In this document: piece after piece, positions 50-63,959 of the stretch
How the letters are laid out: each line of letters begins with the position of its first letter
How positions within the stretch are numbered: the stretch's first letter is position 1
NCBI GenBank assembly: GCA_000092065.1
Contig: CP000600.1
Strand: one strand, 5' to 3'
DNA from: Ostreococcus lucimarinus
Taxonomy: Eukaryota
Length of the DNA stretch: 64,000 nucleotides
Position numbers and translations under genes: made by a program
The notes under the pieces: model-generated
Told to the model about the DNA's origin: nothing
Databases searched by the model: none
Seen by the model: only the letters and a program-made list of their open reading frames with translations

Positions 50-1015
50 ATGACCTTCGTCGTCGCCACGATTCGCGCGTCGATCGAACTCATGAAGTGG
101 GCCCCGACGGGCGGGTCAGGGGCGGGGACGATTTCACTCGTTTCCGTGATTGGGTTCGGCATCGCGGCGTGCTGCGTGTACGTCGCCGCGGGAAGCTGGG
201 ATGACAAGTGCGGTCCGAGAAGTAGCGAGCGCTACCGTCGCGCCAAGACGTCGAGCGTCGAAGAGCGCGCGGGGTTACTGTCGTCTACGACGGCGGCGGC
301 GACGTTGGCGCCGCCTCGACGGATCAATATGTCTCTCTCATCGAAGTCGCGACGCACGAAAGCGAGCGACATGTACGGTACGAGTACTGTCCCCGCGTTT
401 GACGTGGAAAGTGGGAAACGAACGCCCGAGGCGTTTAGCGTCGGCGACGAGGACGACGTCCAACCCGTCAGCCTCGACGTCCCGGCGTTGACGAACGCGA
501 AGGAGATGCAAAAGGCTATCAAAAAGTACAAAAACATGCGAGATCACAATTTCGATCTCGAGAACTTTAGTGAGTACGCGCAGAGCGATGCGACGAGCGT
601 GATGTCGGAAAATCACGCGCCGTCGCACGTCAACTTTGGATCGCACGCGCCGTCGCACGAAGATTTCGGCAGCGAAATCGGCAGCGCGTTCGGCGACGGC
701 GACGACGACGAAAGGTCGGTAGACATGGACGGCAAGGATCGCGCCGCGCTGGCGCACGCCATGCAAGCGCAGCACGACTCGCAACAGCGCGCCAAATCGC
801 TTCGCATGGCGAATTTGCGCGTCAACACCGCGCCCGCGCCGAATCCCAAACGGTCGCGACCGCCGAGGTCGCCGCGCAGCTCCAACGCGACGTCCGCGGA
901 CAATTCGCCGCGCGCGCCGCTCTCACCCCCGACCGCGGAATCACCCAAACCCATCAGCGCGTCCGATTGGGTCGATTCCCCGATCGTCGTCGACGCGTCG
1001 TCGACGCCTCGATGA
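50..1015 (+). CDS. hypothetical membrane protein (N-terminal hydrophobic segment, internal NHAPSH-VNFGS/EDFGS duplicate)
   Basis: 321-aa ORF with non-biased composition in its first two-thirds; a TM-like stretch GTISLVSVIGFGIAACCVYVAAG near the N-terminus; no family recognised; may extend upstream of the window. Confidence 0.35.
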   Translation: MTFVVATIRASIELMKWAPTGGSGAGTISLVSVIGFGIAACCVYVAAGSWDDKCGPRSSERYRRAKTSSVEERAGLLSSTTAAATLAPPRRINMSLSSKSRRTKASDMYGTSTVPAFDVESGKRTPEAFSVGDEDDVQPVSLDVPALTNAKEMQKAIKKYKNMRDHNFDLENFSEYAQSDATSVMSENHAPSHVNFGSHAPSHEDFGSEIGSAFGDGDDDERSVDMDGKDRAALAHAMQAQHDSQQRAKSLRMANLRVNTAPAPNPKRSRPPRSPRSSNATSADNSPRAPLSPPTAESPKPISASDWVDSPIVVDASSTPR

Positions 1016-1519
1016 CGCCTCGACGACGAAGCCCGTCTCGCGTCGCGTCGCGTCGCGTCCGCGTCTACAGCGCGCGTTGATTATTTTACACCCAGTCTAC
1101 GCTACCCCGTCGCGCCGTCCCCCACCGTCGTCTCGCCCGCCGGAGTCCCCTTTCCCAACCTTCGCGCGCGTTCAAAGTGCAGCGCGCGAAGCATCGCGTT
1201 CACCTCGGCGTACGCGCCCGCGCGCGCCTCGTCCTCGTCCTCGTCCTCGCGCGCGCGTCCCGTGTGCATGCGCTTCACCGCGCGCTGCAGTTCGAGCACC
1301 TCCTCGCCGTCGCTCGCGCTCGGTCGCGCGCGCGTCGCGCGCGTCGTCGTCATCGGTCGGCGCGTCGTCGCTCTCGGGCGGTATCGACGGCGCGCGGACG
1401 CGCGACGCGCGCGAGACCGACTCGGACGCGCGCGCGCGATCGCGGCGCGCGCGACGCCGCGCCGCGCGGTCGAATCGCGCGCGCGAACGGCGCGCCGTCG
1501 CCACTCTACGGCGCGCCGA

Positions 1520-1952
1520 AATGAAACCGAAACCGAAAGATTCGCCCAAGAAGCGCCATCAGCGACCGAAGAGCGGCACGGGCGCGGCCAAGCGCGACAA
1601 ACGCGGCGTCGCGCGACACAAGAGCGCGACGACGGCGTTCGGCGAGGCGACGTTCGACGACGCGAAGCGTAAAGATTGGGTCACCGGGTACCGCAAGCGC
1701 AAGGTTGGACGACGAAAGCAAGCGCAGCACGACGCCGAGCAGCGCGCGCGACGCGAGCGAATCGCGGCGAGGAAGGCGCGGAGGGACGCGGAGCGCGTCG
1801 CGCTCGGTTTGGTGGACGACGAGGGCGAACGCGCGGCGAATGGGGTCGGGGACGCGGTCGAGCGGGACGACGCGGACGTCGACGCGGCGTACGCGAGCGG
1901 CGTCACGGTGACCGTGCGCGCGGGATCAGGCGCGAGCGACGATGGATTTTGA
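1520..1952 (+). CDS. small Lys/Arg-rich basic protein, possibly a nucleolar or ribosome-biogenesis factor
   Basis: The 3' part of ORF 1077..1952 starting at ATG 1520 (MKPKPKDSPKKRHQRPK...KDWVTGYRKRK...) has protein-like composition; the 5' part of that ORF is RP/RA low-complexity typical of GC frame artifacts. Confidence 0.35.
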
Positions 1953-2189
1953 TTTGTATTTTTTGTATCTCTGTATCTTTGCCTCGAGCGCGCGTTTCGA
2001 TTCGTTTCGCGCGCGTCGGCGTCGGCGCGCGGCAGAGCGCGACTCGCGGCGGCGGCGATGCGCGGTCGGTCGGTTCGACGCGCGCTCGCGCTCGCGCTCG
2101 CGTGCGGCTTGGGTGCGTGACGTAGGGCGCTCGTCGCGACGCGTCGCGGCGGCTCGACGACGGCGCGCGCGCGCGCGGAGGGAACGATC

Positions 2190-3644
2190 GTGGGGAACGC
2201 GCGCGTCGAGCGAATGCGCGTCGACGCGCGCGAGAGCGGCGAAACGCGACGGCGCGATATCGGACTGACGGCGCGCGAACGCTACCTGTCGAACGCAGCG
2301 ATGGCGCGCGACGCGGAGGGGGCGCGACGCGCGAGCGTGAACGCCTCGGGCGTGTTCAACACCAACGGCTTGCGGTGTCCCGAAGACGTCGAGTGCGAGC
2401 GGTGCGCGGCGCCGCTGAACGCGGCGCCGTTCCGCGCGCCGGTGAACCTGACGGGAGTGCGAGTGATCGGGTGTCGATACCGCGCGGACGTGTGCGACGC
2501 GCTGCGCGAGGAGTCGAAGGCGTGCAAGAGACACGCGCGGTCGCTGTGCGGCGAACAGGACACGCGAGCGCAGGCGAAGACGAAATGTAAACGCGAAATG
2601 AATCGAGCGTGGAAGACGCGGTGCAAGGAAGAACGGACGATGATGGTGTCGCGCGCGGATGGGGCGCTGAAACGGTTCTTGGAAGTGCTGGAAAAGTTGA
2701 AAAGGGCGCGAGCGAAGCGCGCGGCGGGAGGCGCCGGGGACGACTTGACGATGTTAGAGATGGAGCTTTCGCGCTTGAAGACGTCGATCGGGCACGCGTT
2801 CGAGGAGCTGAGAAGTAATCACGGAGGCGTCGCGGTGGGATTGATGTCGGATCGAATGGAAGCGTTCGTGCGCGGGCCGACGCTGTTGGATTCGACGAGC
2901 GATATGTTGGACGTCGTCAACGCCATGAACGCCGTCTTGGGCGAGCTTCAAGGTTTGAGCACCGAAGCGAAAAGCTTGTGCTCGTACGACGCGAACATGG
3001 ACACGTCGGATGGTAAAATTTTGTGCCAAGACATGGAAGAAAAGATGAAGCTTTCGGAGAAGCGCGTCAACCGCTGCGCCGCGCGCCTGAGCGATTATTT
3101 AGCGTCGACGGCGAAAATCGACGCCCTCATCGTAGAGAAGAAGCGTCGGTTCGCGCTTTTGGATTCGCTCGACAAGTTCACCGATTCAATCTCTGGCGCT
3201 TGGTCCGCGGTGCAGTACGAAGGCGACGACGACTTTGTCGAAGAGCCGTCGACGCGCTTCAATCTCACCGAACACGTCACCACGGGCATCGTGCACACGC
3301 TCATGAACCACTACACCACTGTCAGCGCCCGCCACGCGCTCGCCACCGCCGAAATCAAAGAATCCGCGCTTTGCGCGCACATCATTCCAAGATTTCAGCT
3401 CTCTCTCCTCGGCACCGGCTTCAAGCGCGGCGACCTCGCGTGTCCGCCGCCCCACGGCACCTTCATCGCCGGTCGCGAGCTCCCGGACTGGTCCGCCTAC
3501 TTTTTATTCCTCCTCGGCATCGCCGTCGGCGCCGGCGCCACGATCGCCACCAATCGCGCCAACGAAGCCGTGGATTTCGTGCGCACGAATTCCTCCGTCG
3601 TCGTCGCCGTCTTGGTCGTCGTCTTGGCCGGTCGCTTCTTTTAG
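2190..3644 (+). CDS. hypothetical Cys-rich, coiled-coil protein with a C-terminal transmembrane anchor
   Basis: 484-aa ORF; N-terminal Cys cluster (CPEDVECERCAAP...GCRY...C); central heptad-like region; C-terminal hydrophobic segments (YFLFLLGIAVGAGATIA, VVVAVLVVVLAG). Confidence 0.4.
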   Translation: MGNARVERMRVDARESGETRRRDIGLTARERYLSNAAMARDAEGARRASVNASGVFNTNGLRCPEDVECERCAAPLNAAPFRAPVNLTGVRVIGCRYRADVCDALREESKACKRHARSLCGEQDTRAQAKTKCKREMNRAWKTRCKEERTMMVSRADGALKRFLEVLEKLKRARAKRAAGGAGDDLTMLEMELSRLKTSIGHAFEELRSNHGGVAVGLMSDRMEAFVRGPTLLDSTSDMLDVVNAMNAVLGELQGLSTEAKSLCSYDANMDTSDGKILCQDMEEKMKLSEKRVNRCAARLSDYLASTAKIDALIVEKKRRFALLDSLDKFTDSISGAWSAVQYEGDDDFVEEPSTRFNLTEHVTTGIVHTLMNHYTTVSARHALATAEIKESALCAHIIPRFQLSLLGTGFKRGDLACPPPHGTFIAGRELPDWSAYFLFLLGIAVGAGATIATNRANEAVDFVRTNSSVVVAVLVVVLAGRFF

Positions 3645-9079: not shown

Positions 9080-9985
9080 TTACAAGCCGAGTTCTATGGC
9101 TAAGGCGGTCTTGACTTTTTTCACCGCCTTCGCGGGCGGCGCGTTCGTTAACGCGGTCGGCGGCGGCGCGGGCGCGGACTTCTTCGCGTCGTCGTCGTCG
9201 TCGTCGTCGCTCTCGGTGAGTTTAATTTTCGCCGTGCGCTGGGTGTGCAAGGTGTCCTTGGTCAACGGCGGCGGCGCGAAAAATCCAAACGTCGCCGCTT
9301 TCGCCGGTTCCGCGCTCGTCGACGGCGCCGCGGTGGGAAACGAAAATAACCCCGCCGGTTTCGTCTTCTCAGCCTTCGCCTCGCGCGCGTCGTCGTCGTC
9401 ATCCGCCTCGACGGGCGCGCCGCTCAGCCGCGAAAACACGCTCGATCGACCGGCGTCCGCGTCCTCCCTCTTCGCCCCACCCGTGAGCGCCGCGAACCCT
9501 GCGAACGCGTTCGACGTCGTCTTACCACCGTCCCCGGTTCCACCCAACGGCGATTGTCCCGGTCGCTTCGCCTTGACCACCTTTCGCCTCCCGCCCGACG
9601 AGCTCGCCGGCGACTCGCTCGCCTCCCCCGGCTTCCTCCTCGCCACGTACTCCCGCCCCTGATCCTCGAACGCCCGTCGCTCCCGCTCCCGATCCTTCGC
9701 CTCTTCGATCTCTCGCTTCGCCCGCTGCGCCTCCACCTGCGCTTTCGCCTGTTCGATCATCGCGTTCACGTCGTCCGACGGCGTCGCCGCGCTCGCCGCG
9801 AACGGATTCGCGCCCTCGGGCGCCGGCGGCGCCTTCGCCGCGCGTCCGAAGTAATTCCCCGTCGCCTCGTCGACGTCCGCGTCTTCCTCGTCGTCGTCCT
9901 CTTCGTCGCGCGCGTCGTCGCGCGCGTCGTCGACCTGCGCGTTCAAACCGACGCCGTCAGTCCAATCGCGCATCGCATCGCGCAT
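9080..9985 (-). CDS. hypothetical acidic protein with scattered FG/F-x-F motifs (possibly nucleoporin-like)
   Basis: 301-aa ORF with varied composition ([25 protein letters not shown]), poly-Asp tracts and motifs [35 protein letters not shown]; the plus-strand ORFs covering the same bases are low-complexity. Confidence 0.4.
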
Positions 9986-10157
9986 CGTCCGCGTGCGTCG
10001 TCTCGAAGCGCGCGTTCGCGCCCGCGCGCCGCGATCGCGCGCACCTCATCCTCCGTCGCGCGCGCGTCCTCGCCGTCGCTCTCGTTCGACATCGCGCGCG
10101 CCGCGATCTGCGGCGAACGCGTCGCGATCGATGCGTCATTCGACGACGCGCGAATCC

Positions 10158-12995
10158 ATGTCGAACCAAGCGTCGCGCGCGCTTCGCGCGCCGGTGGCGC
10201 CGTTCGGCGACGCGCCCGCGCCCGCGGGTTACGTCCCGGGACTCGGTCGCGGCGCCGCGGGGTTCACGACGCGGAGCGACATCGGGCCGGGACAGGTCGC
10301 GGCGGCGGGGGACAAGGTGCGGGAACGAAACGACGACGACGACGCGACGACGCGACGACGCGACGACGCGACGGAGGCGCGATGCGATGGACGCGCGCGC
10401 GGATGATGCCGGCGAACGACTGACGAGGACGGCGCGCGCGAGTAGGAGCGAGACGAGGACGGCGGGAGAAGCGGCGACGGCGGCGAAGACGGATTGTTCG
10501 GCCGGGACGCGTCGACGTACGACGACGACGACGCGGAGGCGGATGAGATATGGGCGCAGATCGATGAGAGGATGGACTCGAGGCGGAGGGACGCGCGAGA
10601 GCGGCGGGAGAGGGAACAGATGGAAAAGTTTAGGGATGAGAATCCGAAAATCGTGGAGACGTTTCGCGACTTGAAGCGCGGGCTGAAGGACGTGTCGTAC
10701 GCGGAGTGGGACGCGATTCCGGATATCGGGGACTACACGATCAAGAAGAAAAAACTGAACGTGGGGTTCATGCCCGCGCCCGATACGCTGCTGGCCAAGG
10801 CGTTGGCGGAGAAGGAGACGGTGAACACGGCGGCGGACGCGGGCGGCGAGCAAGACTTGACGGCGGTGGGCGAAGGTCGAGGGACGGTTTTGGGGTTGAA
10901 GCTCGACCGATTAAGCGATAGCGTCACGGGTCAAACGACGATCGATCCGAAGGGGTACTTGACCGATTTAGGCTCGCAGAAGATCACGAGCGCGGCGGAG
11001 ATTTCTGACATTAAAAAGGCGCGTTTGCTGCTCAAGAGCGTCATCAACACCAACCCCAAGCACGGCCCGGGGTGGATTGCGGCGGCGCGTTTGGAGGAAC
11101 TCGCGGGTAAATTACAACAAGCGCGAGTGTTCATGCAAAAAGGGTGCGAGGAGTGTCCGAAGAACGAAGACGTGTGGATCGAGGCGGCGCGGTTGAACAC
11201 GCCGGAGAACGCCAAGGCAATTTTAGCGCGCGGCGTGCAAACGTTGCCGAATTCGGTGAAGATTTGGATGCAAGCGGCGCAATTAGAGATTGAAGATGAG
11301 CGTAAGCGGCGCGTGTTGCGGCGAGCGTTGGAGAACGTGCCGAATTCTGTGCGATTGTGGAAGGCGCTCGTGGACTTGAGCGCCGAGGACGACGCCAAGG
11401 TGTTGCTCGCGCGCGCGACGGAATGTTGTCCGCAGCACGTCGAACTTTGGCTCGCGCTGGCGCGTTTGGAGACCACTGAGAACGGTCGTAAGGTGCTGAA
11501 CAAGGCACGCGAAACATTACCGCGCGAGCCTCAGATTTGGATCACCGCGGCGAAGCTCGAGGAGGCGAATGGGAACGAAAAAATGGTGGAGAAAATCATC
11601 GCGCGCGCGGTCAAGTCGCTCAAATCGCACGGCGTCACCATCGATCGCGAGAGTTGGATCAAAGAAGCGGAAATCGCTGAAAAAGCCGAACCACCGTCGA
11701 TTGCGACGTGTCGGGCGATCGTCAAGGCGACCATAGGCGAAGGCGTGGAGGAAGAGGACAAAAAACGCACTTGGAAGGCGGACGCGGAGGAGTGTATGAA
11801 GCGCGAGAGCGCCGAGACCGCGCGCGCGATTTATGCGCACGCGCTAGATTCAGGATTTTCGCACAAGAAGGGTTTGTGGATGAAAGCGGCGATGTTGGAA
11901 AAGCGATTCGGTACGCCTGATTCCGTCGACGCCGTCTTGCGCAAGGCGGTGACTTTTTGCCCCAACGCTGAAATCTTGTGGCTCATGGGCGCGAAAGAGC
12001 GCTGGCTCAGCGGCGACGTCACGCGAGCGCGCGAGATTTTACAATCAGCCTTCGACGCCAACCCGGACTCGGAAGAGATTTGGCTCGCGGCTTTCAAATT
12101 GGAGTTTGAAAACGGCGAAATTGATCGCGCGCGCATGTTGCTCGCCAAGGCGCGAGAACGTTTGGCCGACTGTGCGCGGGTTTGGATGAAATCTGCGCTT
12201 GTCGAGCGCGAGGCGGGTGATGAACAAGCCGAACGCAAGCTTCTCGATGAAGGCATCGAAAAGTTTCCGACGTTTTGGAAACTTTGGATGCAACTCGGGC
12301 AACTTGAACAGCGCGCCGGGGAGAAGCGCGCCGAGCAAGTCCGACACGCGTACACGCAAGGCACGAAGAAGTGCCCGAACGCGATTCCGTTATGGATTGC
12401 GCTTTCAAGTTTTGAGATGCGCAGTGGGAACGCGTCCAAGGCGAGAATCATTCTCGAAACCGCGCGCGCGAAGAATCCCTCCAACGAACACTTGTGGCTC
12501 GCCGCCGTACGTCAAGAGCGCGAGAGCGGAAACATCCAGCTCGCCGAGAGCACGATCGCGCGTGCACTGCAAGAGTGCCCAACGAGCGGTTTGCTCCTTG
12601 CCGAGTCCGTGCGATTTGCGCCTCGCCCGCAAAGGAAATCGAAATCTGTCGACGCGTTGCGGCGGTGCGACAACGATCCGTACATCATCGCCGCCATCGC
12701 CATTTTGTTCTGGGCCGACCGCAAACTCGACAAAGCCCGAAGCTGGTGGAACCGCGCGGTGACAATAGCACCCGACATTGGTGACCACTGGGCGTCGTAT
12801 TACAAATTCGAACTCCAAACCGCGGGCGAGCAAGCCGCCCAAGCCGTCGCCGAGCGTTGCGCGCGGGCCGCTCCTCGCCACGGCGAGAATTGGAGCGCGA
12901 TGCGCAAGCGCGTGGAGAACTGGCACGATCCCGTGATTGAAATTTTGAAAAAAGTTGCCGCCGGGCAAGACGAAATGGCGTACGCGACGAAATAG
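10158..12995 (+). CDS. PRP6: pre-mRNA splicing factor PRP6 (U5 snRNP 102-kDa protein, HAT/TPR repeats), with one probable short intron near the 5' end
   Basis: The N-terminus MSNQ...[30 protein letters not shown] is the PRP1_N motif. It continues in ORF 10494..12995 ([24 protein letters not shown], then about 15 HAT repeats to ...[13 protein letters not shown]). An in-frame stop at 10404 separates the two parts. Confidence 0.9.
10317..10445 (+). other. predicted intron in PRP6 (AAG|GTGCGG ... AGTAG|GAG), boundaries tentative
   Basis: Removes the in-frame stops at 10404 and 10443 and keeps the frame (both boundaries fall on codon boundaries of frame 9993). The donor resembles the TM9SF donor GTGCGT; the acceptor lacks a pyrimidine tract. 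Confidence 0.4.
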
Positions 12996-36008: not shown

Positions 36009-36344
36009 CGTTCGCCGCGCTCGAGGCGTCGACCGACCCACGGGCGCGCGTCGCGTCGATCGTCGAGCGATTCGCGCGCGATTCGCGTCGCGGAGTGTCG
36101 CGGCGGCGGCATTTCCGCGGCGCTTCCGCGGCACTTTGCGTCGCGAAACGCATTCGTTCGCAGCGTGGACGCGATGAGCGGCGAAGAGGTGCGCGCGAAC
36201 GCGACGCGCGCGCGCGCGAAGGGTGAACGGTTTGGCGACGCGCGGGGCGGTCGAGCGCGCGCGAGAACGCGCGCGAACGCGACGAAGGACGAGGAAAGAC
36301 TGACGATTTGAGATCTGCCACAGTACAACCCATTTCTGAATGAC

Positions 36345-48629: not shown

Positions 48630-49112
48630 GGTGCCGGGACGAATTGAGTGGAATTCTTCACACACTGACGCGCACCGGCGCTTTCGACGCGCTTTCGACG
48701 CCGAAAACGCCGACGTCAGTGAATACAAAGCACACGCACCCGTTCAAATCGTCCGCGCGTCGCACGTCGACGACGCGCGACGGTAAGACGCGTTCCAAGC
48801 GCGCTCTTCGGGACATCTGTGTGCGAAGGCATTCGAGCGAAAATGAGCGCGCGGCGCACGCGCCGTGGACGCGCGAACGGGAAAGACGAAGAAGATGACG
48901 TCGATGAAGATGATACGAGGTGCGGCGCGACGAATGACGCGATGATGACGCGGCGTTGGGTGATACGAGGGCGATGGCGATTGAGCGGGACGAGCGCGCG
49001 AGCGGGACAACCGACGCGAGACGAAAGATGACTGACGGATGCGCGTGAACGACGTCCACGCCACGGTTTTAGGTCACCGACGACGAGCGATGAACGACAG
49101 CAGTCGTCTGGG

Positions 49113-62960: not shown

Positions 62961-63386
62961 TTCGCCTGTTTTTGTTCCGCCCCCGAGATGCGAACGGACA
63001 CACCGCCCTCGGTCGGTCGCCCGGCGCGTGGGGTTCGGCATTTTCACTTTCGTGTTCGCGTCGATGCGACCACACGGCGTACGTTTCCTTCTTAATACGC
63101 ATAAATCACCCACTCGCGTCGGCGCCGTATTGAACGCGCGGACCGCGCGAACGCGTCGTCGCGCGCGTCGTCGTCCGTCGTCGCGCGCGCATTGGCGTTG
63201 ACGCCGCACACGCGCGCGAGGACGACGCGCCGCGCGCGCTCGCGGTCGTGACGACGGCGCATCGAGGACGCGCCGACGACGACGCGAAATATTTCGACGC
63301 ACCGCGTCGCGGCGTGAACATGGAGGTGCGCGACGCGCGACGCGTTCGACGGACGCCCTAGAGCGTTGGGATAACATCGGCGCGGC

Positions 63387-63959
63387 ATGAGACCTAGCGC
63401 GCGCGGCGACGGCGGACTGACGACGCGCGCGCGAGCGACGACGGCGCGCGAACGCTCTCAGGGAGCGAAGGCGCAATTACCCAAAGAGTTATCATGGATC
63501 CCCGATCTCGTGCACGGCGCGTTCTTCGCGCCGTGCGACGTGCACAGCACGGGGAGCAAAGGCGAGCAAGTCAATTTGTTCTCGTTATCGTCACGACGCT
63601 CGATGTGTCCGGCGTGCGCGGCGGAGCGCGACGTGTTCGACACGATACAGGTGCGACGCGCGACGCGAGCGATTTTTATTTCAAGCGTCGGGCCCGCGGC
63701 GCGGACGACGGCGCCGAGGCGCGGCGCGCGCGCGGACGACGCGACTCGGGGCTTTGAATCGAGCGAAATGCGGGAAAAGCTCGCGGCCTCAGCTGTCTTT
63801 CGCGCGGCGCTTTTAGGGTTTAGGGTTTGGGCGCGTTCGCGCGGAGGCGACGTACGACTGACGCGCGCGACGAATCGTCTCGCTCGAAACGCTAGATTCG
63901 AAGGAGTTCGTATCATAACGTCGTGCGCGTGCAAGACGTGTGTAAGCTCATGGACGTGA
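63387..63959 (+). CDS. hypothetical protein (weak call)
   Basis: 190-aa ORF; the segment [40 protein letters not shown] has non-repetitive composition with a CxxC pair, but flanking sequence is R/A-rich; could be artifact. Confidence 0.2.

Follow-up and report, generated by a model that had tools for sequence, protein, structure and literature searches.

The introns that lie outside chromosome 2 of Ostreococcus lucimarinus were analysed by Irimia & Roy (2008, PLoS Genet, PMC2483917) from EST-confirmed examples. They share an atypical and very strong donor consensus, GTGCGTG, carrying 4.8 bits, and the branch motif ACTGAC, which is present in 87% of them and in the extended form GACTGACG in 66.5%. 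The distance between branch and AG shows a broad peak at about 20-35 nt, and the 3' ends display a modest preference for CGCAG (PMC2483917). Here we compare with this class an interruption in the gene for the splicing factor PRP6 of O. lucimarinus CCE9901, a tiny green alga and the source of the window (the whole stretch of 64,000 nucleotides that was analysed, to whose numbering the coordinates refer unless a contig is named). Very probably the interruption is an ordinary U2-type intron of the non-chromosome-2 class in a PRP6 gene of two exons, its splicing being something that we infer from the sequence. The O. lucimarinus genome is intron-poor, and the PRP6 intron would be recognised in the way typical of that genome.

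The PRP6 gene and its divided PRP1_N domain

A protein search matched the spliced product to the public model P0002 (XP_001422607.1 / ABP00924.1), entered as 'predicted protein [Ostreococcus lucimarinus CCE9901]' in a 549,133-bp record and identical to the translation of the window except for two differences in the splice model. The more distant matches were PRPF6/STABILIZED1 proteins, which share about 60% of their residues with it across 98-99% of the length. These matches identify the gene as the PRP6 (PRPF6/STA1-type) gene of O. lucimarinus. It is the single one in the window, and we read it as two exons. Its product has the architecture of the PRP6/PRPF6 family, an N-terminal PRP1_N domain (PF06424) followed by Pfam matches to TPR_14, HAT_PRP39_N/C and Suf. 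Exon 1 (10158-10316, plus strand) has 53 codons and encodes the start of PRP1_N; its ATG at 10158 is the start codon of the public model and is kept in relatives. Exon 2 (10446-12995, plus strand) has 849 codons and a stop, encodes the remainder of PRP1_N together with the HAT/TPR repeats, and is open in frame up to that stop. Scans of the window against Rfam and for tRNAs gave no matches.

An earlier note on this DNA, made from its letters, had claimed that the PRP1_N start and the HAT-repeat body share a frame that two stop codons interrupt, and that a probable intron accounts for this. Both the ATG at 10158 and the ORF listed from 10494 (833 codons) do fall in the same frame (0 modulo 3). 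The two in-frame stops were found at 10404-10406 (TGA, plus strand, the first inside the intron) and 10443-10445 (TAG). The GT of the proposed donor AAG/GTGCGG (the slash marks a splice boundary) stands at 10317-10318 and the AG of the proposed acceptor at 10444-10445, and taking out 10317-10445 (129 nt) leaves one open frame, as the note had held, of 902 codons. The domain itself tells the same story: the upstream ORF of 82 aa corresponds to positions 1-51 of the Pfam PRP1_N profile (exon 1 covers these same positions; E = 7.6e-13) and the downstream ORF to positions 67-144 (E = 5.6e-27), while the product with 10317-10445 removed corresponds to positions 1-144 (E = 2.5e-43). The interruption of PRP1_N is thus that of one Pfam domain cut in two, far beyond chance.

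The neighbouring gene, which is divergent and lies on the minus strand, has an apparent 5' intron of its own, of 110 nt, at 10044-9935 (GAG/GTGCGCG ... GACTGACG ... GCGCAG/GTC; window 9935-10092). It would link a first exon of 16 codons (ATG at 10092, minus strand) to the ORF at 9080-9985, and only 65 nt would then separate the divergent start codons at 10092 and 10158.

Splice signals and conservation of the probable intron

The spliceosomal GT-AG intron that we propose occupies 10317-10445 on the plus strand (129 nt, phase 0); its removal restores PRP1_N, and an orthologous intron occurs in contigs L002 to L008. The 5' splice site GTGCGGG (10317-10323, plus strand) agrees with the consensus GTGCGTG at 6 of 7 positions. 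The branch-site motif GACTGACG (10418-10425, plus strand), whose A at 10423 is the presumed branch point, reproduces the published extended motif exactly. Three AGs stand in a row at the 3' end, GAG-TAG-GAG (10440-10448, plus strand). From the motif it is 19 nt to the TAG acceptor and 22 nt to the GAG that follows it, the published peak being 20-35, and the base at -5 is A, not the preferred C, so that the 3' end fits the class tolerably but imperfectly. A microsatellite, (ACGACGCG) x 5.4, occupies 10330-10373 (plus strand), and its copy number differs in L008, whose protein is 99% identical.

The earlier note was right that a pyrimidine tract is missing before the acceptor: in the stretch between branch motif and AG, pyrimidines make up 28% of the bases and T is absent altogether. 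Its worry over this was unfounded for O. lucimarinus, however, because the same stretch in the orthologous introns is likewise poor (28-48% pyrimidine), and the missing tract is therefore normal for the PRP6 intron and its orthologs.

Triplets of GTGCG, ACTGAC and YAG in this order number 11 in the window, against 4.2 +/- 2.0 expected (maximum 10) from 200 first-order Markov simulations, and most of them break otherwise open frames. This excess, together with the interruption of open frames, argues that the window holds several introns of the GTGCG/ACTGAC/YAG class. Further candidate introns with GTGCG, GACTGACG and YAG, each breaking an open frame, lie on the plus strand at 2113-2298, 36189-36323, 48920-49072, 63326-63461 and 63651-63895, and on the minus strand at 6649-6460. 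An introner or other repeat-element origin of the PRP6 intron was also considered and found no support: with the intron as query, BLAST over the 64 kb of the window returned only short (ACG)n matches of low complexity, and no repeat copies.

A comparison with PRP6 orthologs of related algae, as the earlier note had proposed, was made on syntenic loci from six other Ostreococcus lineages (L001, L002, L003, L004, L005-7 and L008), synteny being taken as PRP6 followed by an acetyltransferase gene and then by a gene for a Ribosomal_S13-family protein. An intron stands at the same place in five of the six, always in phase 0 and always with a GTGCG donor, GACTGACG and a CAG or TAG acceptor, so that position, phase and signals are kept in six Ostreococcus lineages; with the window included, the GTGCG donor and GACTGACG are common to all six orthologous introns. 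The lengths vary, with 93 nt in L002, 134 nt in L003, 125 nt in L004, 155 nt in L005-7 and 121 nt in L008. All but one of these five lengths are not divisible by 3, the exons there lying in different genomic frames, and splicing is therefore obligatory for PRP6 in those four lineages. When the window is aligned with L008, the exon flanks next to the intron hardly differ. Within the intron there are three indels of one base each and a change in the number of repeats, and the TAG of the window corresponds to a CAG, YAG being kept. The position of the intron is thus conserved while its sequence changes as non-coding DNA does (L002 to L008, 93-155 nt).

The sixth lineage, L001, lacks the intron at this site and encodes one continuous protein of 916 aa (359-3109 of its contig). 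The contig is genomic and bears several genes, and its protein cluster counts 51 members on contigs of up to 146 kb. Its PRP6 appears to represent a clean loss of the intron in one Ostreococcus lineage. On a neighbour-joining tree drawn without bootstrap the intron-less L001 nests among the intron-bearing lineages. Two Micromonas-like genomic contigs, L009 and L010, have a phase-0 intron 11-14 residues past the RSD motif, the corresponding distance in Ostreococcus being 10-13 residues, and the transcript-like 3-kb contig L011 is without the L010 intron, with its junction exactly at CAG/GT...CAG/. Micromonas-like introns at about the same site and the nested position of L001 suggest that the intron probably goes back to the ancestor of the Mamiellales, with a single later loss; that the positions are exactly homologous is presumed within a linker of variable length.

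The PRP6 gene of L010 also has four short introns that resemble one another (about 58-75 nt, GTACGTTTCTT..TTTCCGTACGGGCGATTRGACTGACG..TTTACAG), at approximately 2016-2080, 2419-2493, 2986-3049 and 3251-3308 of the contig. They are missing from the related L011 and look like Micromonas introner elements.

Other readings of the interruption can be weighed against these data. Several other in-frame GT/GC-AG combinations exist around the intron, leaving room for a different donor such as CAG/GTCGCG at 10296 or GC donors that keep the frame. None of them has the GTGCG consensus, however, whereas all six Ostreococcus lineages keep GTGCG where exon 1 ends, and the constraint on 5' splice sites outside chromosome 2 is very strong (4.8 bits, PMC2483917); a donor other than the one at 10317 is very improbable. 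Still harder to credit is that there is no intron and that the stops are errors of sequencing or assembly or the marks of a decaying pseudogene, for which nothing speaks beyond the stops themselves. A frameshift, which the earlier note had left as an alternative, would explain nothing, as both parts share one frame; two independent nonsense errors would be required, and independent metagenome assemblies agree in the structure, namely L008 and the P0001 cluster, in whose 103 members the ORF starts at the same place. A pseudogene is further at odds with the otherwise intact state of the gene and with its full-length identity of about 60% to plant STA1. That the locus consists of two genes, one for a small 82-aa PRP1_N peptide and the other for an N-terminally truncated PRP6, we regard as scarcely credible too. 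Prokaryote-style gene callers do give two ORFs on metagenome contigs (e.g. L005, 434-652 and 748-3252), but the cut lies within one Pfam domain, the gap has complete splice signals, and all more distant homologs, as well as the intron-less relative L001 with its one continuous protein, encode a single polypeptide, which speaks against the separate small gene that the earlier note had named. The probable intron of that note, on the other hand, stood up well: the public model uses the same donor, the published splice signals are present exactly or nearly so, and the intron is conserved in six Ostreococcus lineages.

Acceptor and public gene model

The exact boundaries had been called uncertain, and at the 3' end they are so within narrow bounds, the acceptor being either the TAG ending at 10445 or the annotated GAG ending at 10448, 3 nt apart. 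Both keep the frame and they differ by one Glu codon. With TAG the junction 10316 to 10446 would read GGGGACAAG/GAGCGAGAC, and with GAG the junction 10316 to 10449 would read GGGGACAAG/CGAGACGAG (GACAAG/CGAGAC). The first GAG of the row (10440-10442), used as acceptor, would be followed immediately by the TAG stop. Protein homology was tried as a means of pinning the junction and set aside, since the length of the linker varies among lineages and PRP1_N profile positions 52-66 find no counterpart.

GAG is the weakest acceptor class in general, and alternative use is generally not seen at NAGNAG sites whose N is G. Tandem acceptors of the NAGNAG kind, which are said to have been described by Hiller et al. 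in 2004, reportedly also have GAG as a weak member. The PRP6 site is like them in its TAG/GAG, two in-frame AGs 3 nt apart that differ by one Glu, and unlike them in having G at the N position and so belonging to the class generally left unused.

The orthologous introns allow the two acceptors to be weighed. The earliest AG that restores the frame in L004 is a CAG, the next in-frame AG being a GAG 33 nt downstream. In L005-7, GAGs at 11 and 24 nt past the branch A lead to a stop or put the reading out of frame, and only a later TAG, at 29 nt, works. These two branch-nearer GAGs are skipped, as is the GAG at 10442 in the window, and GAG is therefore bypassed in these algae; this bypassing and the conservation of YAG argue that, if the intron is real, the TAG at 10445 is the likely acceptor and the intron one of 129 nt. 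The same intron with the GAG at 10446-10448 as acceptor (132 nt, a protein of 901 aa reading ...GDK/RDEDGG...), or with both tandem acceptors in use, is rather unlikely. It agrees with the public model, which reads ...AAAGDK/RDEDGG... with the donor at 10317, the AG at 10447-10448 and a GAG acceptor ending at 10448 (a 132-nt intron); it keeps the frame just as TAG does, and its 22 nt from the branch motif fall inside the published peak of 20-35. Apart from the weakness of GAG as an acceptor class and the skipped GAGs, what tells against it is that L004 and L005-7 have no AG 3 nt past the YAG, and so no NAGNAG alternative, and that the orthologous YAG was retained in L008 through a T-to-C change. 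Nor is the public model authoritative here, as it has another intron that is probably wrong. The AG at 10444-10445, given as acceptor by the earlier note, thus appears favoured over the annotated GAG by the comparative evidence.

The public model XP_001422607.1 / ABP00924.1 (847 aa) agrees with ours in locus, start codon and donor (10317) and differs in its GAG acceptor, 3 nt downstream. It differs also in removing a further 165 nt at 12263-12427 (plus strand; AA/GTTTCC...GCGCAG/T), by which 55 HAT-repeat residues (KFPTFWKLW...SSFEMRS) are exchanged for a single N. No stop breaks the frame in this segment, every homolog conserves it, and both a GTGCG donor and an ACTGAC branch are missing from it. 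This second intron is therefore probably spurious, a prediction error, and for these same reasons the true PRP6 protein is likely to have about 902 aa, not 847. The practical value of the analysis is one of curation, in that the annotation probably misplaces the acceptor by 3 nt and the second intron deletes 55 conserved residues.

Interpretation and comparison with known systems

In the reading that we propose, one phase-0 U2-type GT-AG intron would part exon 1 (10158-10316) from exon 2, which would start at 10446. Its recognition would depend on the strong 5' splice site GTGCGGG and on the strong branch site GACTGACG, with the A at 10423; the acceptor would be the first usable YAG about 20 nt past the branch, the TAG at 10443-10445, and a pyrimidine tract would play no part. 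Splicing would link ...AAAGDK to ERDEDGG... and yield a protein of 902 aa in which PRP1_N is whole and the HAT/TPR repeats come after it, whereas an unspliced transcript would end after 82 codons. A search of metagenome contigs for the spliced junction, with two patterns and a gap of 0-3 nt covering both acceptors, gave 0 matches. When the first 190 aa of the spliced protein were compared with a set of 5.8 billion proteins, no sequence of this clade was found to span the junction; the matches were confined to unspliced ORFs, the lineage lacking the intron, and P0183, whose sequence runs on through the intron. The supplement of the EST paper (PMC2367439) lists no PRP6 cluster. Indirectly, the lack of the L010 intron in the transcript-like L011 speaks for removal of the equivalent intron from mature mRNA.

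It is conceivable, though improbable, that the intron acts as a feedback sensor, low spliceosome activity leading to its retention and to a PRP6 truncated after 82 codons, and that the TAG/GAG tandem acceptor in addition gives two isoforms differing by the Glu. Relevant here are the stops in the retained intron of this strain and the fact that most Ostreococcus lineages, and probably Micromonas too, have kept the intron. If there were such a sensor, PRP6 output would track splicing capacity in an intron-poor alga. The intron as such is already known, being present in the public annotation and having the signals of a class described in 2008, and for this reason it is of little wider importance; a minor evolutionary point is that it is apparently old (Ostreococcus, probably Micromonas) and was cleanly lost in one Ostreococcus lineage.

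As a protein, O. lucimarinus PRP6 resembles PRP6, PRPF6 and Arabidopsis STABILIZED1, the tri-snRNP bridging protein, in having PRP1_N followed by HAT/TPR repeats, and is about 60% identical to its plant and green-algal orthologs across 98-99% of the length. It differs from this family in its shorter N-terminal linker, positions 52-66 of the PRP1_N profile being absent, and in having no ubiquitin-like N-terminal extension. The intron, in turn, shares with the O. lucimarinus introns outside chromosome 2 (PMC2483917) the GTGCG donor, the exact GACTGACG, a YAG about 20 nt downstream, the lack of a pyrimidine tract, a length of about 130 nt and a place near the 5' end of the gene. It departs from them in donor position +6, which is G and not T, in its 3' end, GAGTAG in place of the preferred CGCAG, and in its branch-to-AG distance of 19, at the short edge of their range.
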